A stretch of 64,000 bases of DNA from Sphyrna mokarran. Lineage: Eukaryota. Each line of letters opens with the position of its first letter. The first letter of the stretch is position 1. The position numbers and the translations under genes were made by a program. The stretch lies in contig JAGIQG010000016.1 of assembly GCA_024679065.1 (NCBI GenBank), positions 2,046,001 to 2,110,000 of the forward strand, in the 5' to 3' direction. This document shows positions 2,964 through 63,776 of this stretch, piece after piece. Below the pieces are notes generated by a model. That model ran no database searches and was not told the DNA's origin. It saw only the letters and a list, made by a program, of their open reading frames with translations.

Positions 2964-3257
2964 ATGGCACAGTCAATACAAGGATCCGCTCTGATGAAAC
3001 AGATGGGTATCTCACTCTACAGGTGAGATTGTGTCCGTGGTGTTTGGGTGATGGGATCAGGGTCAGAACAGAAGTATAGGTCAGAGTGTTGCCATGCTGA
3101 GTTACAGTGTTTGAGACTGATCCAGGTATGTCAGTGGGAGTGTACCAGGTTAAGACAGGTGCTGTTCCATTGCACGTTGTATTGAAGGTGCAGCTTATGT
3201 TCACACGCTTTTCTGCAATAGTTTCAGCAGGGAATATTGTGGGTTTATCTGTGAAAT
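2964..3257 (-). CDS. Siglec-like receptor, Ig C2-set exon (domain 2)
   Basis: 294 bp, AG/GT bounded, phase 1-1; DFTDKPTI...ISCTFNTTCNGTAPVLTW...LTCRV, with the extra Cys typical of Siglec domain 2. Confidence 0.9.
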
Positions 3258-4343
3258 CTAACACACAGAGAATGGATCTTTTTAGATAAATATATCATGA
3301 AGCATCAGTTCAAATAGAAATCACAGTCACGCAAGAGAAAGCATTGTTACAGGAGAAAATCAGAACTCAGTTTATACAGCCAATGAAGAACATTTCTTTT
3401 TCAAAATTATTGGACTGTCTGTTTCTCAGCTTAATACACTTTTGCTCCAAGACTATTGATCTGATAATCACAGGTGAGCGAGAAAGGGTAGTTTATAAGA
3501 CTATTAAATAGGATGAGAGTGATCGATGGGATTGGATGATCTGATCATGTCGATGGATGCAGTCAGTACATTTAATCATTGATATTAAAGTGAATATTCG
3601 GATGGGTACATGAGTAGCAAAGTACAAACCTCTTCCTTTCAGAAAGATTGACTGCATGGAGTTTTCCATTGTGACAGAAAGCAAGAAAGATTGGTATATT
3701 TCTGGACAGGTTCAGAGCCCATGGTTTAAACAAAGAGCTCAGAACATTCTTGTGCACTGTCATTTTAAGGGAAGCTTTATAACGTGATATAGCCTGTGAC
3801 TATAGTAAACCCATTTCCTGACCAATGTCTCAATGTTTGAACACAGCGCCAAGTGCGATCCTGAGAACAGTAGTGACGCAGTCAGAGGGTGAAGAAAGCA
3901 ACTGAGTATTTAAAGCAGCTATTCCCATTCAGAAACTGACAACTAATTGGATGCATAAGTTTCTGTAACATATCTGACCATTGAAATTCTGGATAATTAT
4001 TGAAGCATTTACAAGCTGGGAGTACAGATACAAAGCATGTTTGTTCTTCCCATACTGTTATTTTCAATTCAGTTTCTTTGTCAGTTTGATCAGTAACTAC
4101 CTCCATCTCACTTTGATTTTTATACATAAGTACATGTTTGAAATCAATAATCACAGGTACAAATAAATTCACCTGAATCGACAAACCAACCTTTTGAATG
4201 AGTCAACAATTTGTTCTCTTGTGACTAGAAACAAATTATTAGTTTGAACATGAGAGGAATCCAATATATAAATGTCGCAGTCTGTATTATTTCCCATTGA
4301 ATATTGAATGTGAATTGTTGAATAATTATAACACAGCACTTAC

Positions 4344-4709
4344 CAGAAACGTGAAGCCGGGTTACTGGGTAATAGTTATGGGTGGGACCGTTGTCAAATT
4401 CGATTCTGAAAAAATAAGGTCCTGCATCTTCCCGTGTGACATTGTTTATAATCAGGGAACAGTCACCATCTTTCAGGTCTCCTGACAGCCGGGTCCGATG
4501 ACGGAACTGTGGCAACTCGTGATTGTGATCCTTGGAGTGAAAGGCTAGAGGAGCCCAGGGAATCTGTTTCTCAGCATAAAACCAGACTCCACCTCGAGGC
4601 TGGTTTGCCAAATGTGATGGATAACTGTAATGACATGGAATCTGTACACACGAACCTTCCTGCGCTGTCACCTTTCGTGGAGTGTCGCCTTTCCACTCTT
4701 GTGACAGTC
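4344..4709 (-). CDS. Siglec-like receptor (CD33-related/CD22/MAG family), V-set sialic-acid-binding exon
   Basis: 366 bp, AG/GT bounded, phase 1-1; SCVQIPC, GDCSLII and DAGPYFFRIE give the Siglec Cys pattern plus the essential F-strand Arg (codon 4405-4407). Confidence 0.92.
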
Positions 4710-6699
4710 CTATTGGGACAGAAATATCAACGTTTAACATTGGATGGATTGTCGATCCACTAGACTCGATATTCACCCCCTCCGTCGCTGGTGCACAGTG
4801 GCTGCAGTGTGCACTATCTACAGGACACACAAGGAACTCCCCAAGGTTTCACAATGAATGAAGAGAATCCTGGACACAGGAGTGGACAAATTCATCTTAC
4901 ATTGATTCATGGTCCTCAGGACACTGCTTAATGAAGCCACTCTCCACCCAACACAATGTCTACAAGACACACCAATGGAGATAACATTCAGTGCTGATTT
5001 ACAAGGCAGGACAATGGATTAGGAACCCCCAGAACTCCCACCATCATGAATTACTGATTAGCCTCACCTTCCAGTTTGCTTTTCAAGACAGCTGATTTTT
5101 TAGTCCAGTATTCTATGTCCTTTTTGTGATGTGGTGACGTGAACTGTGCACAATTCTGTAAGTGTGGTCTAACCAAGGATCGATACAGGTTTAGCACCAC
5201 TGCCTACTTTTCAATTCTATCCTTGCAGAAATAATTCTAGTGTTTGATTTGTTGCTACAGCTTTGCCAACCTGTGCTGTAAGTTTTAGTGATTGATGTGA
5301 TTGTATCTTAGATCTCTTTATTCCTCTACTCACCCTCATTCTGACAGCCAGACTGACCTAGACATGGAGAGTGAAGTTTAAGAATTCCAATAGCTCACGC
5401 ATTTTGGAATTTTCACATTGGTGCAGGAATATATGGCACATGCACAGTTTGACTTTTTTGTAATTTTTCAGACCAAGGTAAGGACCAGTGCATGTGTGCA
5501 AAAAAAGGCAAGAAAACTCAGGTCATGTGATCCAGGAGCGAGAAGGATCCTAACAGGGAGAGGGGGCTACGGAAAGCTAGACAAAAGAGGAGGCCCAGAC
5601 AGAGCGGGGTTAGGGTAGAGTCCCAAAAGTGGAGTCAAGCCGAGCACAGGAAGAGGGAATAGGGAAGGGTTCCAAAAGAGCACCCCCAAATAGGAGACTG
5701 AGATAGCAGAAATGGAGAGGTCCTAGTCATGGATAAAGAGGAGCAGAAAGACAGAGGCTGCAAAGTTACAAAGCCAATGCTCGGAGTGGACCACACAGTC
5801 TCAAATCCTTCTCCTTGCTTGTTCCAGAAACCAAGTTCAAATTCTGATTGAATCCAATTCACGGTTCCTGCAAAAGAAACAAACAAGATCCAGGCTGACA
5901 GGATAAGGGATTGCACCCTATCTTGGGCTTGATCCAACGATGCTTAGTCTTAGCCAAATGTCAAAGAGATGCCGTTGGCAGAATTTAAATGGTGAGGACT
6001 CAGGAAAAAGCCAAATCAAAATCTGAAAATGATTGTTCCGATTCTGACACTGATCAAAATTCTGGGGGGTCTGGTTAACTTTCATAACAGGCTACACTTG
6101 CACATTCCAACCAAAACATGTTTATTTCATTTATTCTTTTCTAGGATGGTAAACAAGAACATTTTCTTCCACTCTAAATTTTCCTTGATTTGAATGGCTT
6201 GCTTGAACTTTTAAAGAGTCTGTTTAAGAGTCTGCCACATTACTGTGAGTCAGGAGTCACATGGAGGACAGACAGGGTAAGGCTGGAAGATTTCCTTCCC
6301 TAAAGGACATTAGTGAGCCCGATAGATTTTTCCATTAATCGATCATGGTCAACATTACTCAGATTAACTTCCATTATTTTATATAAAGCAAACAGTTTTC
6401 CATTTATCCAGCCTTTCACTCTCTCTCCAGTATTTTTCTCTCTCTCTCATCCAATAGACTGATTCTTCAGAGGACCAATCGGAAAGTCATAGGCCCTAAT
6501 TTGAGAAACAATGGAATAAAATCTCTCTTCAGATCCTTAGTGTCTAAGGAATCTCTTTGGATCCTCATTGTCTAGGAGATTACTAGTCATCCAATATTGT
6601 TGTATTGTTGATTCTGATGCGGCATTGGAGACTGACTCGTCTCCAAGTCCAGTGCTGACCCTGTGAAACACTGTAAAACACACAAGCAAAGTGCCTCCA

Positions 6700-62452: not shown

Positions 62453-62754
62453 CCACATCACGAGGTGTGGTTTTGAGATGGAAAAGTGAATGAGGTGAAT
62501 AAAGAGCTGAATTTGAAATCACAGCGCGATTGGCAAGGCCAAATCATTCACCGTTTCCCAGCACACAAACAGGCCTTTCGGCCTATATCCATATTCAATC
62601 CCACACTCACTGAAATCCCGGAGTCCCAAAGTCCAAACTGGAGGCAAATATTATAAAATCGTACCCCCCAGCAATCTCCGTCTCGTTCTATTCCTCCCTC
62701 ATGCGTTTATTCAGGTTCCTCTTAAATACATTGATAATATTCACCTAAAGCATT

Positions 62755-63200
62755 TCCCGTGGGAGCGGCTCCCGCATTCTCCCCCGCTCCCCGTGGGAGC
62801 GGCTCCCGCATTCCCCCCCGCTCCCCGTGGGAGCGGCTCCCGCATTCCCCCCCGCTCCCCGTGGGAGCGGCTCCCGCATTCCCCCCCGCTCCCCGTGGGA
62901 GCGGCTCCCGCATTCCCCCCCGCTCCCCGTGGGAGCGGCTCCCGCATTCCCCCCCCCCCCGCTCCCCGTGGGAGCGGCTCCCGCATTCCCCCCCGCTCCC
63001 CGTGGGAGCGGCTCCCGCATTCCCCCCCGCTCCCCGTGGGAGCGGCTCCCGCATTCCCCCCCGCTCCCCGTGGGAGCGGCTCCCGCATTCCCCCCCGCTC
63101 CCCGTGGGAGCGGCTCCCGCATTCTCCCCCGCTCCCCGTGGGAGCGGCTCCCGCATTCCCCCCACTCTCCCCGTGGGAACAAGTTCTACGTTCTCCCCAC
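62755..63200. repeat. ~34-bp GC-rich minisatellite
   Basis: About 13 units of CGCTCCCCGTGGGAGCGGCTCCCGCATTCCCCCC. Confidence 0.95.
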
Positions 63201-63543
63201 TCTCCAGGTAAAGAAGTTTCTCCTGAATTCCTGGTTGGATTAATTAGTGAGTGTCACATATCAATGGTTCTGCTCTGACATCTAATCCTGGGCTTCACTT
63301 CCTACCTTAGAGCAATCATGATGCTCCTTGATTGCTAAGAAGCATTTTGAGAAACCACATAGTGCCAGTAGGCGCTACAGAAATGCAGATCTATCTTTAT
63401 ATTGAATGTCTCAAAGCGGTGTTCCGATCCTCAGCCTGAGCAATAGGTGGATTTGGCCTTCAGAAAACACATCATCACAATCCCCTGCCCCCCCACCGCA
63501 TGGCTCCAACGTCTCTTGCACCTGCTCAGTGTGCCATACTCAC

Positions 63544-63776
63544 AGCCTCAACTCTGCCTTGACGGGGTTGGGGACTCGCTGGTAACACACGCTGAAGAGG
63601 CCGCACGCCGATGTCCGCGAGGTGAACCAGTCGCCACTGGCCAAGCGCTTAACCAGCGGCACAAAGTATCGCTCCAGATCGAGTGCCGAGTGCTCCTTGG
63701 AGATGGCACGCAGCGACTCCACTGCCTTGTCCCTCACCACTGTCTCCTCCACTGTGGCCAGGCTTTCCAGCGGAGG
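63544..63776 (-). CDS. PPP2R1A: PP2A scaffold A subunit, exon 4
   Basis: 233 bp; [23 protein letters not shown]...[15 protein letters not shown] versus B paralogue assigned mainly by synteny. Confidence 0.96.

Follow-up and report, generated by a model that had tools for sequence, protein, structure and literature searches.

Does the gene order of human 19q13.41, which we take to be SIGLEC5/14, the miR-99b cluster, HAS1, FPR1/2/3, ZNF and PPP2R1A, extend back to the common ancestor of sharks and mammals? The phylogeny of the FPR family outside mammals has been described as blurred (PMC6504862), and CD33-related Siglecs are stated to be absent from fish genomes (PMC7226832), which leaves genomic position among the few clues to how both clusters arose. 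A sequence-only reading of the window, by which we mean the whole 64-kb stretch of DNA analysed here, had proposed that a Siglec, an FPR-like GPCR and a PP2A scaffold gene are linked in it as in human. The answer that we favour, with somewhat more confidence than doubt, is that the window preserves part of the ancestral jawed-vertebrate segment from which human 19q13.41 arose.

Gene content and order of the locus

Mapping of exons and open reading frames confirmed that all three genes are present and are neighbours in the proposed order, with the V-set and C2-set exons of the Siglec on the minus strand, the intronless GPCR on the plus strand and exons 4-15 of the PP2A scaffold gene on the minus strand (Table 1). 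The best protein matches come from the sharks Mustelus and Scyliorhinus, which bears out the supposition that the DNA belongs to a cartilaginous fish. Given about 20 such GPCRs and a few Siglec loci among some 20,000 genes, we estimate from these family sizes a chance of roughly 1e-6 that a PP2A scaffold gene would have two such neighbours in this order.

Only repeats and one LTR element, which is intergenic and lies outside the conserved block, were found between the three genes. A Pfam scan of 135 of the 143 non-tandem-repeat ORFs of at least 55 amino acids recovered neither HAS1 nor a further Ig exon between the genes; its two matches among the 135 are ALKBH8_N, presumably LINE-derived, and a fragment of an endonuclease-RT. 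Further Siglecs and HAS1, which the sequence-only reading had suggested seeking near the scaffold, were not found between the genes, and the window contains one Siglec gene only. No Rfam family was detected in the 64 kb, the miR-99b cluster was not found between the genes, and a tRNA scan of the window was empty.

Table 1. Positions of the annotated features within the window
Feature	Position	Strand	Remarks
Siglec C2-set (domain 2) exon	2964-3257	-	Phase 1-1; Pfam C2-set_2, E 3.8e-10; AG/GT ends, open frame
Siglec V-set exon	4344-4709	-	Phase 1-1; Pfam V-set, E 2.9e-12; AG/GT ends, open frame
Candidate Siglec signal-peptide exon	11465-11519	-	Hydrophobic leader, phase-1 AAG/gtaata donor; putative, one of several candidates
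Polypyrimidine tract and AG acceptor	22670-22685	+	Just 5' of the GPCR ATG; 5'-UTR intron, intronless coding region
Chemoattractant-family class A GPCR	22692-23680	+	ATG to TAG; single coding exon
LTR retroviral element	24820-34336	+	gag-stop-pro-pol; pol split across several frames; no complete env
PP2A scaffold (A subunit) gene, exons 4-15	35906-63776	-	Non-1B (1A-side) paralogue
Scaffold exons 4-9	63776-63544, 60862-60715, 58719-58564, 57803-57689, 56183-56111, 55340-55206	-	Approximate coordinates
Scaffold exons after gap	52744-52582, 48111-48051, 44605-44449, 39462-39320, 37443-37352, 35922-35906 (stop)	-	Approximate coordinates

The Siglec gene

Matches to Pfam and PDB reveal the architecture typical of Siglecs, in which phase-compatible exons encode an N-terminal V-set domain and then a C2-set domain. 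The F-strand arginine that is essential for sialic acid is kept, with YFFRIE aligning with YFFR of Siglec-5 and Siglec-7 and with YYFR of MAG. Also kept are the extra cysteines of the intra-sheet and V-C2 disulfides, which appear as CVQIPC (CVxxPC) and DCSL in the V domain and as CTFNTTC (CxxxxxC) in the C2 domain. Judged by domain order, arginine and cysteines, the predicted gene is a genuine member of the family. Its remaining exons, and with them the tail, the number of domains and the ITIM/ITAM status, lie beyond the left edge of the window.

The affinities of the gene lean slightly toward the CD33-related Siglecs rather than MAG. Among PDB entries, the V domain scores 59.4 bits with Siglec-5, 56.5 with Siglec-7, 55.4 with MAG, 49.4 with sialoadhesin, 34 with Siglec-15 and 25.7 with CD22, and the best match of the C2 domain is CD33 (33.2 bits versus 26.9 for MAG). 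These margins over MAG amount to just 4 bits (V) and 6 bits (C2), and they are differences in score rather than positions in a tree. Moreover, the CD33-related Siglecs and MAG (Siglec-4) both share with the window gene the V-set plus C2-set start, the essential arginine and the cysteine pattern, and the V domain is about 34% identical to Siglec-5 and to MAG alike (counted by eye). The view that this gene is a positional relative of the CD33-related cluster is in keeping with a genuine Siglec whose best scores are CD33-related, by small margins over MAG.

The PP2A scaffold gene

Exons 1-3 of the scaffold gene lie beyond the right window edge; the end of the gene is not at the last large exon but about 1.4 kb below it. 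Exon 4 does not separate PPP2R1A (1A) from PPP2R1B (1B) by PDB score (135.5 versus 136.5 bits). In an unrooted, vertebrate-only tree of 20 rows, the 1B proteins of mammals, frog, teleosts, Callorhinchus and Mobula are split from bony-vertebrate 1A plus the clade of the window gene with support of 100/99, and the window clade is held outside the gnathostome 1B clade at 97/95 and 100/99. A separate 1B is present in both the chimaera (Callorhinchus) and the ray (Mobula), and descent of the window gene from a chondrichthyan-specific 1B duplication was rejected (p-AU 0.00036). The choice between 1A and 1B on which the sequence-only reading depended thus comes out on the 1A side of the unrooted split; as a predicted protein, the scaffold is not PPP2R1B.

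Whether the gene is 1A proper is a subtler matter. Over 21 columns discriminating between 1A and 1B, it carries the 1A residue at 10, the 1B residue at 6, another residue at 2 and a gap at 3, and Callorhinchus and Mobula carry the 1B residue at 11 each; many of its 1A-like residues are ancestral. Rooting with arthropods gives the union with 1A support of 37/19, and a 23-row arthropod-rooted tree places the window clade outside 1A plus 1B (SH 88). AU tests return p-AU 0.41 for the union with 1A and 0.38 for a position as sister to 1B, and it is by exclusion that we infer a 1A orthologue.

The position outside 1A plus 1B, the long stem of the window clade (0.08-0.10) and the failure to find HAS1 and the miRNA cluster here would all suit a sister paralogon dating from the genome duplications of vertebrates, in which elasmobranchs retained a third ohnologue of the PP2A scaffold along with a Siglec and a GPCR of its own, and which would resemble 19q13.41 but not be orthologous to it. 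We consider such an origin unlikely, given that just two chondrichthyan scaffold types, the window type and 1B, occur among the 120 listed matches, with none inside bony 1A, and that two paralogues per lineage form the simpler history.

Family placement of the GPCR

With hmmsearch, the GPCR profile scores CML-plus receptors at 198-217 bits and somatostatin receptor 2, the highest-scoring receptor from outside the family, at 142. On this basis the predicted protein belongs to the chemoattractant (CML-plus) family, being closer to C3aR, CMKLR1, FPR and DP2 than to other class A receptors. Within the family, C3aR scores 217, CMKLR1 216 and FPR1 202 bits, and C3aR, CMKLR1, FPR2 and DP2 are in a near-tie within 6 bits. 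The clear preference for human CMKLR1 that would mark a CMKLR1 orthologue is missing from this near-tie. Identity of the window copy is 35-41% to non-mammalian CMKLR1-like proteins and 33-34% to bat FPR2-like proteins.

In trees, the receptor forms a long-branch shark lineage (stem 1.15-1.65) that joins no sampled clade with support. A grouping with FPR is absent from the free trees and has p-AU 0.27 when constrained, with only two bat FPR2-like rows sampled; union with C3aR has p 0.06, and union with sauropsid CMKLR1-like proteins costs 0.19 lnL (p-AU 0.48). FPR-directed sampling supplied 13 proteins from 156 candidates, and a tree that is without mammalian CMKLR1, FPR1, PTGDR2, GPR1, GPR32, GPR33 and C5aR cannot be decisive.

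Short motifs offer little guidance. The sequence-only reading took HWPFG and LCKF to be FPR-like and FKMKKTV to be CMKLR1-like. HWPFG occurs in 23 of the 32 aligned receptors and in neither bat FPR2-like row, LCKF in the window copy alone (1/32; shark orthologues read LCKL), and FKMKKTV/I in 22/32, so it is no CMKLR1 marker. NLF, also taken as FPR-like, fares better, in that NLFGS is confined to two sharks and two FPR2-like proteins (4/32), but it has been lost from the window copy. With most motifs non-diagnostic, an FPR assignment by motif was rejected.

The place of the GPCR between Siglec and scaffold speaks for the proposed positional orthologue of FPR; the tree leaves it unplaced. That it is a true FPR1-3 orthologue, with intact shark copies predicted to sense formylated peptides, is improbable, although this position, the shared NLFGS, the constrained p-AU and the presence of FPR1 among the top matches of the N-terminal half (121 bits) are in keeping with it. 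PMC6155412 gives D106 and R205 as ligand-pocket residues of FPR; in the three sharks, the former (TM3) is Tyr in 3/3, the latter (TM5) is Cys in 2/3 and Arg in 1/3, and DRY is QRC in 3/3. Residues shared exclusively number four with FPR versus five with C3aR, and FPR1 trails C3aR and CMKLR1 in profile score.

It is also doubtful that only the Siglec-scaffold region is ancient and that the GPCR came separately, as a transposed CMKLR1-like or PTGDR2-like gene whose FPR position is coincidental. The receptor is intronless, its top protein matches are CMKLR1-like, the sauropsid CMKLR1-like union is nearly free of cost, and the C-terminal half scores best on DP2 (66.7 bits versus 57.4 for FPR), with which it shares His 5.58. 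This histidine is also present in two lizards and one bat FPR2-like row, and was rejected as a PTGDR2 marker because it is homoplastic. True CMKLR1-like controls favour CMKLR1 over FPR2 by 58-62 bits (phmmer), whereas the shark profile places it above FPR2 by 4 bits (hmmsearch), two figures that are not strictly comparable; a chance landing in the FPR slot is itself unlikely.

Orphan receptors near CMKLR1, GPR33 and GPR1 are known from non-mammals, namely GPR191-193 and GPR1B (PMC6504862), and a CML-plus group has been described (PMC10792014). The shark GPCR resembles such orphans in family, best identity (35-44%) and intronless coding region, but differs in its long stem, in QRC for DRY and in joining no supported clade.

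Probable decay of the GPCR

Relative to the intact orthologues of Mustelus (329 aa) and Scyliorhinus (325 aa), the window copy has a 1-nt deficit at about 23259-23266, in ECL2. A GT-AG micro-intron of 20 nt at about 23281-23300 was rejected as an explanation for the shifted frame, as the intact orthologues align through it and put the break upstream. Lineage-specific changes number 29 in the window copy versus 11 in Mustelus (p 0.006), and the scaffold gives 8 versus 11 and 3 versus 19 in the same kind of comparison. Because of the frameshift and the elevated rate, the GPCR copy in this genome is probably a pseudogene. Database labels are unreliable here: the scaffold is called 'A beta-like', and NCBI names the GPCR of relatives 'chemerin-like receptor 1'.

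Comparison with mammalian and zebrafish loci

The claim that the locus mirrors 19q13.41 holds for the order of Siglec, chemoattractant GPCR and non-1B PP2A scaffold, and fails in several other respects. The shark is without HAS1, the miR-99b/let-7e/miR-125a cluster and ZNF genes between the three genes, has one GPCR, which is frameshifted, and forms a block about 10x more compact. Its scaffold and GPCR lie tail to tail, opposite to human FPR2/3 and PPP2R1A, which presumably are transcribed in the same direction. The sequence-only reading would have yielded to a scaffold within PPP2R1B and a GPCR firmly within a non-FPR subfamily, with no other 19q13 markers nearby; neither gene placement was found.

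The order on cattle chr18 is SIGLEC5, MIR99B, LET7E, MIR125A, HAS1, ZNFs and PPP2R1A (PMC4831767). Zebrafish and mouse fpr genes are alike flanked by has1 and ZFP genes (PMC4480006); these hallmark HAS1 and ZNF flanks were not found between the genes in our window. The zebrafish has1-fpr1-ZFP locus is comparable in that synteny ties a non-mammalian chemoattractant receptor to the FPR locus, but its anchors are has1 and ZFP rather than Siglec and PPP2R1A, and it is limited to bony fish. In our GPCR tree, the teleost protein P0169, which bears the name Fpr1, groups with a CMKLR1-like protein of a teleost and apart from the bat FPRs.

The present locus probably extends the 19q13.41-type block to cartilaginous fish, synteny of the FPR locus in bony fish (zebrafish has1-fpr1) having been published already. 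Conserved microsynteny between shark and mammal is an ordinary type of result, modest for comparative genomics. We found no report of Siglec-GPCR-scaffold linkage in sharks in the literature searched, and subscription papers may contain one.

Origin of the block

The conserved order suggests a neighbourhood that dates back to the first jawed vertebrates. Under descent from the segment that became 19q13.41, a slow housekeeping anchor, the PPP2R1A-side scaffold, would have kept its linkage to two innate-immune families of rapid turnover, one represented by a Siglec from the CD33-related/MAG branch and the other by a chemoattractant-receptor locus. The CD33-related SIGLEC cluster and FPR1-3 would have grown out of these slots in mammals. 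In these sharks, the receptor slot would hold a fast-evolving orphan that is the positional homologue of the FPR locus and probably no formyl-peptide sensor. We infer positional homology for both GPCR and Siglec, with passive inheritance of the linkage most likely, rather than a shared mechanism.

A more specific version is possible, and we offer it tentatively: the block would be older than the split between sharks and bony fish, the GPCR a sister of FPR/GPR32 that turned atypical and DRY-less (QRC), and the Siglec proto-CD33-related. If true, the two immune clusters of mammals expanded where they stood, out of loci that were already neighbours in the first jawed vertebrates. The shark locus, with its non-1B PP2A scaffold as anchor, is a concrete place to seek the origin of both.

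Continuity of the locus

In Mustelus, the orthologues of the GPCR (P0001) and the scaffold (P0042) report one longest contig, 82,886,334, and those of a second shark (P0002 and P0043) likewise report a single figure, 229,598,228; such a shared figure means the same chromosome, not adjacency. Within the window, the sequence from the GPCR to the 3' end of the scaffold is free of gaps. A gap of 129 Ns at 7250-7378, within a simple repeat, separates the Siglec from the GPCR, but a scaffolding artefact is very improbable, as a G-rich repeat of one type flanks the gap on both sides, apparently one LINE spans it, and the strongest candidate for the Siglec leader sits across it from the Siglec exons.

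Layout of the locus

The sequence-only reading had proposed that a Siglec, a formyl-peptide receptor (FPR)-like GPCR and PPP2R1A mirror human 19q13.41, and a Siglec, a GPCR and a PP2A scaffold gene were indeed located in that order within the window. Carcharhiniform sharks provide the top protein matches, with identities of 88% (GPCR) and 96% (scaffold exon) for Mustelus asterias and 76% for Scyliorhinus torazame. We judge it reasonably probable that the locus is an ancestral jawed-vertebrate neighbourhood kept by inheritance. On this reading, a housekeeping gene acting as anchor would already have had two immune families of the birth-and-death type as neighbours in the first jawed vertebrates, and this arrangement would have been retained. 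Both immune families would then have expanded in place in mammals, and in these sharks the slot would hold a divergent orphan receptor, decayed in the window. No evidence points to shared regulation among the three genes.

Features of the window, with their positions and the basis for each
Feature	Position	Strand	Basis
Siglec C2-set exon	3257-2964	-	open frame, phase 1-1, Pfam
Siglec V-set exon	4709-4344	-	open frame, phase 1-1, Pfam
GPCR coding region	ATG 22692 to TAG 23680	+	splice acceptor upstream
Young LTR retroviral element	24820-34336	+	LTR comparison, Pfam
Env-position short stretch with transmembrane segment	33243-33566	+	weak sub-threshold Pfam match, orthoreovirus p10 FAST protein (E 0.0054)
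PP2A scaffold exons 4-15	63776 to last exon and stop 35922-35906	-	shark protein matches
33-bp minisatellite arrays	2-1174, 13308-14279, 22129-22552, 37991-38229, 56321-56458, 60062-60380	both	tandem-repeat scan

Between the genes lie LINE fragments, tandem repeats and the LTR element. Among 143 non-tandem intergenic ORFs of at least 55 aa, 135 were scanned, all but the eight that overlap the GPCR, LTRs or a scaffold exon; two gave Pfam matches, neither to a host gene of the block. No Rfam families were found in the window, and the Pfam ORF scan and Rfam revealed neither HAS1 nor the miR-99b cluster in the Siglec-GPCR interval. Simple tandem repeats are abundant (73 TRF rows), and one 33-bp minisatellite family occurs six times, with one array stopping ~130 nt short of the GPCR splice acceptor. 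The window also has four short N gaps. This repeat-rich character fits a published account linking short shark chromosomes and chromosome ends to tandem-repeat-rich, GC-rich sequence (PMC10620051).

The scaffold gene

The scaffold tree was built from the window's 487 exon-encoded residues and 36 of the best 120 of 531 matches, once fragments, near-duplicates and rows with no name had been set aside. The window protein clusters with Mustelus and other elasmobranch-like rows (support 100/99), and Callorhinchus and Mobula proteins fall with bony-vertebrate PPP2R1B (97/95). An outgroup-free tree of 20 rows separates all PPP2R1B from PPP2R1A plus the window clade (100/99), and union of that clade with chondrichthyan PPP2R1B is rejected (p-AU 0.00036), which rules out PPP2R1B. 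The claimed PPP2R1A identity therefore holds in its negative part; orthology to PPP2R1A, reached by exclusion, is very probable. Rooted support for uniting the window with PPP2R1A, at 37/19, weighs against a firm assignment. So do 21 diagnostic columns, where the window is PPP2R1A-like at 10 and PPP2R1B-like at six, many of the PPP2R1A states being ancestral, and a 23-row tree that places the window clade outside both paralogues (p-AU 0.41 with PPP2R1A, 0.38 as sister to PPP2R1B). That last position would also be expected of a sister paralogon that kept a third scaffold ohnologue; we regard this reading as unlikely.

Window-type scaffolds evolve faster than bony-vertebrate PPP2R1A (stem about 0.1) and divide into a shark group (P0041-P0043 in the homologue list) and a sawfish-containing group (P0044, P0123, P0143); the sawfish copy is located on a 10-Mb sequence. 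The database names of P0041, P0043 and P0059 are misleading: the 'A beta-like' label is attached to shark scaffolds of the window type, which lie outside the PPP2R1B clade, and a bird 'beta-like' protein sits among PPP2R1A.

The receptor

A profile of two intact orthologues scored C3aR 217, CMKLR1 216, FPR2 212, DP2 211, FPR1 202, GPR1 180 and C5aR1 148 bits; the N-half is closest to C3aR, then FPR1, and the C-half to DP2. For two CMKLR1-like controls, CMKLR1 outscores FPR2 by 58 bits in one case and 62 in the other, in a HMMER mode that differs from that of the shark profile. The tree comprised the window and 31 of 50 retrieved proteins, with two bat FPR2-like rows only on the FPR side and without mammalian CMKLR1, PTGDR2, GPR1, GPR32, GPR33 or C5aR. 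In it, the three sharks lie on a long stem, carrying a long-branch warning, with no supported sister group, and no AU test rejects union with FPR (0.27), C3aR (0.06) or a sauropsid CMKLR1-like clade (0.48). Branching near FPR1-3 and GPR32 has been termed especially blurred (PMC6504862), and FPR, CMKLR1, GPR1, GPR33 and PTGDR2 have been placed in one group (PMC10792014).

Among the motifs on which the sequence-only reading drew, HWPFG (23 of 32 aligned rows) and LCKF (window alone) proved non-diagnostic of FPRs, as did FKMKKTV/I (22 of 32) of CMKLR1, and calls based on them were set aside; NLF, as NLFGS (4 of 32), is the only FPR-like one. FPR pocket residues are Asp106 and Arg205 (PMC6155412); in the sharks, Tyr replaces Asp106 in all three and Cys replaces Arg205 in two of three. 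The window receptor and those of Mustelus (P0001) and a second shark (P0002) all carry QRC (about 23073-23081) for DRY, plus His at 5.58, which suggests that coupling to G proteins is atypical or weakened and that this is conserved across sharks. Judged from its sequence, the receptor is a member of the chemoattractant family. On the basis of the scores, unplaced tree, motifs, pocket residues and QRC, we do not assign it to the FPRs, and it probably does not act in an FPR-like manner. Of the proposed positional FPR orthologue, membership of the chemoattractant family holds, and its grouping with FPRs was neither recovered nor rejected; that it is a true formyl-peptide receptor is improbable.

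In ECL2, at about 23259-23266, the window GPCR has one base fewer than its intact orthologues (Mustelus, 329 aa; Scyliorhinus, 325 aa). Its lineage-specific changes number 29, compared with 11 in Mustelus (p 0.006); one of them affects a TM7 Asn conserved in 92% of the other chemoattractant rows, and the adjoining scaffold gene has no matching rate rise (8 vs 11; 3 vs 19). Together, these features make a pseudogene likelier than a lone assembly error.

The Siglec

The V domain retains the essential Arg and Siglec cysteines, and its PDB scores are 59.4 bits for Siglec-5, 56.5 for Siglec-7, 55.4 for MAG, 49.4 for sialoadhesin, 34 for Siglec-15 and 25.7 for CD22; the C2 domain scores 33.2 for CD33 and 26.9 for MAG. 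By these matches the predicted gene is a genuine Siglec, as the sequence-only reading held, and its suggested kinship with the CD33-related cluster holds as far as the CD33-related/MAG side. CD33-related Siglecs have been stated to be absent from fish (PMC7226832). Third-position GC contrasts sharply inside 20 kb, at 0.43-0.45 in the Siglec exons versus 0.68-0.76 in the scaffold and GPCR, and the Siglec copy may have had a different history.

Conservation of the linkage

In Mustelus, the GPCR and scaffold orthologues report an identical longest-sequence size (82,886,334), as do those of a second shark (229,598,228), the species of scaffold P0043 itself being deduced from that match. This shows that the two genes share one chromosome in two more sharks, evidence that speaks to chromosome rather than adjacency. 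An independent arrival of the GPCR is unlikely, and a scaffolding error is highly improbable.

Human FPR1-3 sit within the SIGLEC5-PPP2R1A order. The order in cattle is SIGLEC5, MIR99B, LET7E, MIR125A, HAS1, ZNFs and PPP2R1A (PMC4831767), and has1 and ZFP genes flank fpr in both zebrafish and mouse (PMC4480006). Given those shared flanks, the FPR locus is already traced to bony fish. The Xenopus laevis CMKLR1-like proteins P0021 and P0028 are a possible lead to an amphibian positional FPR homologue; the contigs that carry them match chromosomes 7L and 7S in length, as that of the chicken hit P0019 matches chromosome 14. On Xenopus chromosome 7 (7L/7S) lies the lipe-ceacam-bcl3 block, which in humans belongs to 19q13 (PMC5112662).

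No paper on Siglec-GPCR-scaffold linkage in sharks was found in a search of the openly accessible literature. Conserved shark-mammal microsynteny is an already known type of result, of which this locus is a further instance, and it offers a lead on the origins of FPRs and CD33-related Siglecs.

The LTR element

The LTRs, about 474 nt each, differ by one mismatch and one indel. Its insertion site, 1.1 kb downstream of the GPCR, is a 37-bp tandem repeat, and no target-site duplication was recognised. The element's gag is open (678 codons, with a zinc knuckle), an in-frame stop precedes the protease, and pol is split over several frames (RT, two RNase H-like domains, integrase and an MLV-type C-terminal domain). 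The element contains no full env. FAST-like ORFs have been described in insect retrotransposons and fish nackednaviruses, sharks being unmentioned in the passages that describe them (PMC11952523). The short stretch in the env position may be either a leftover of an env transmembrane region or an ORF of that FAST-like kind.
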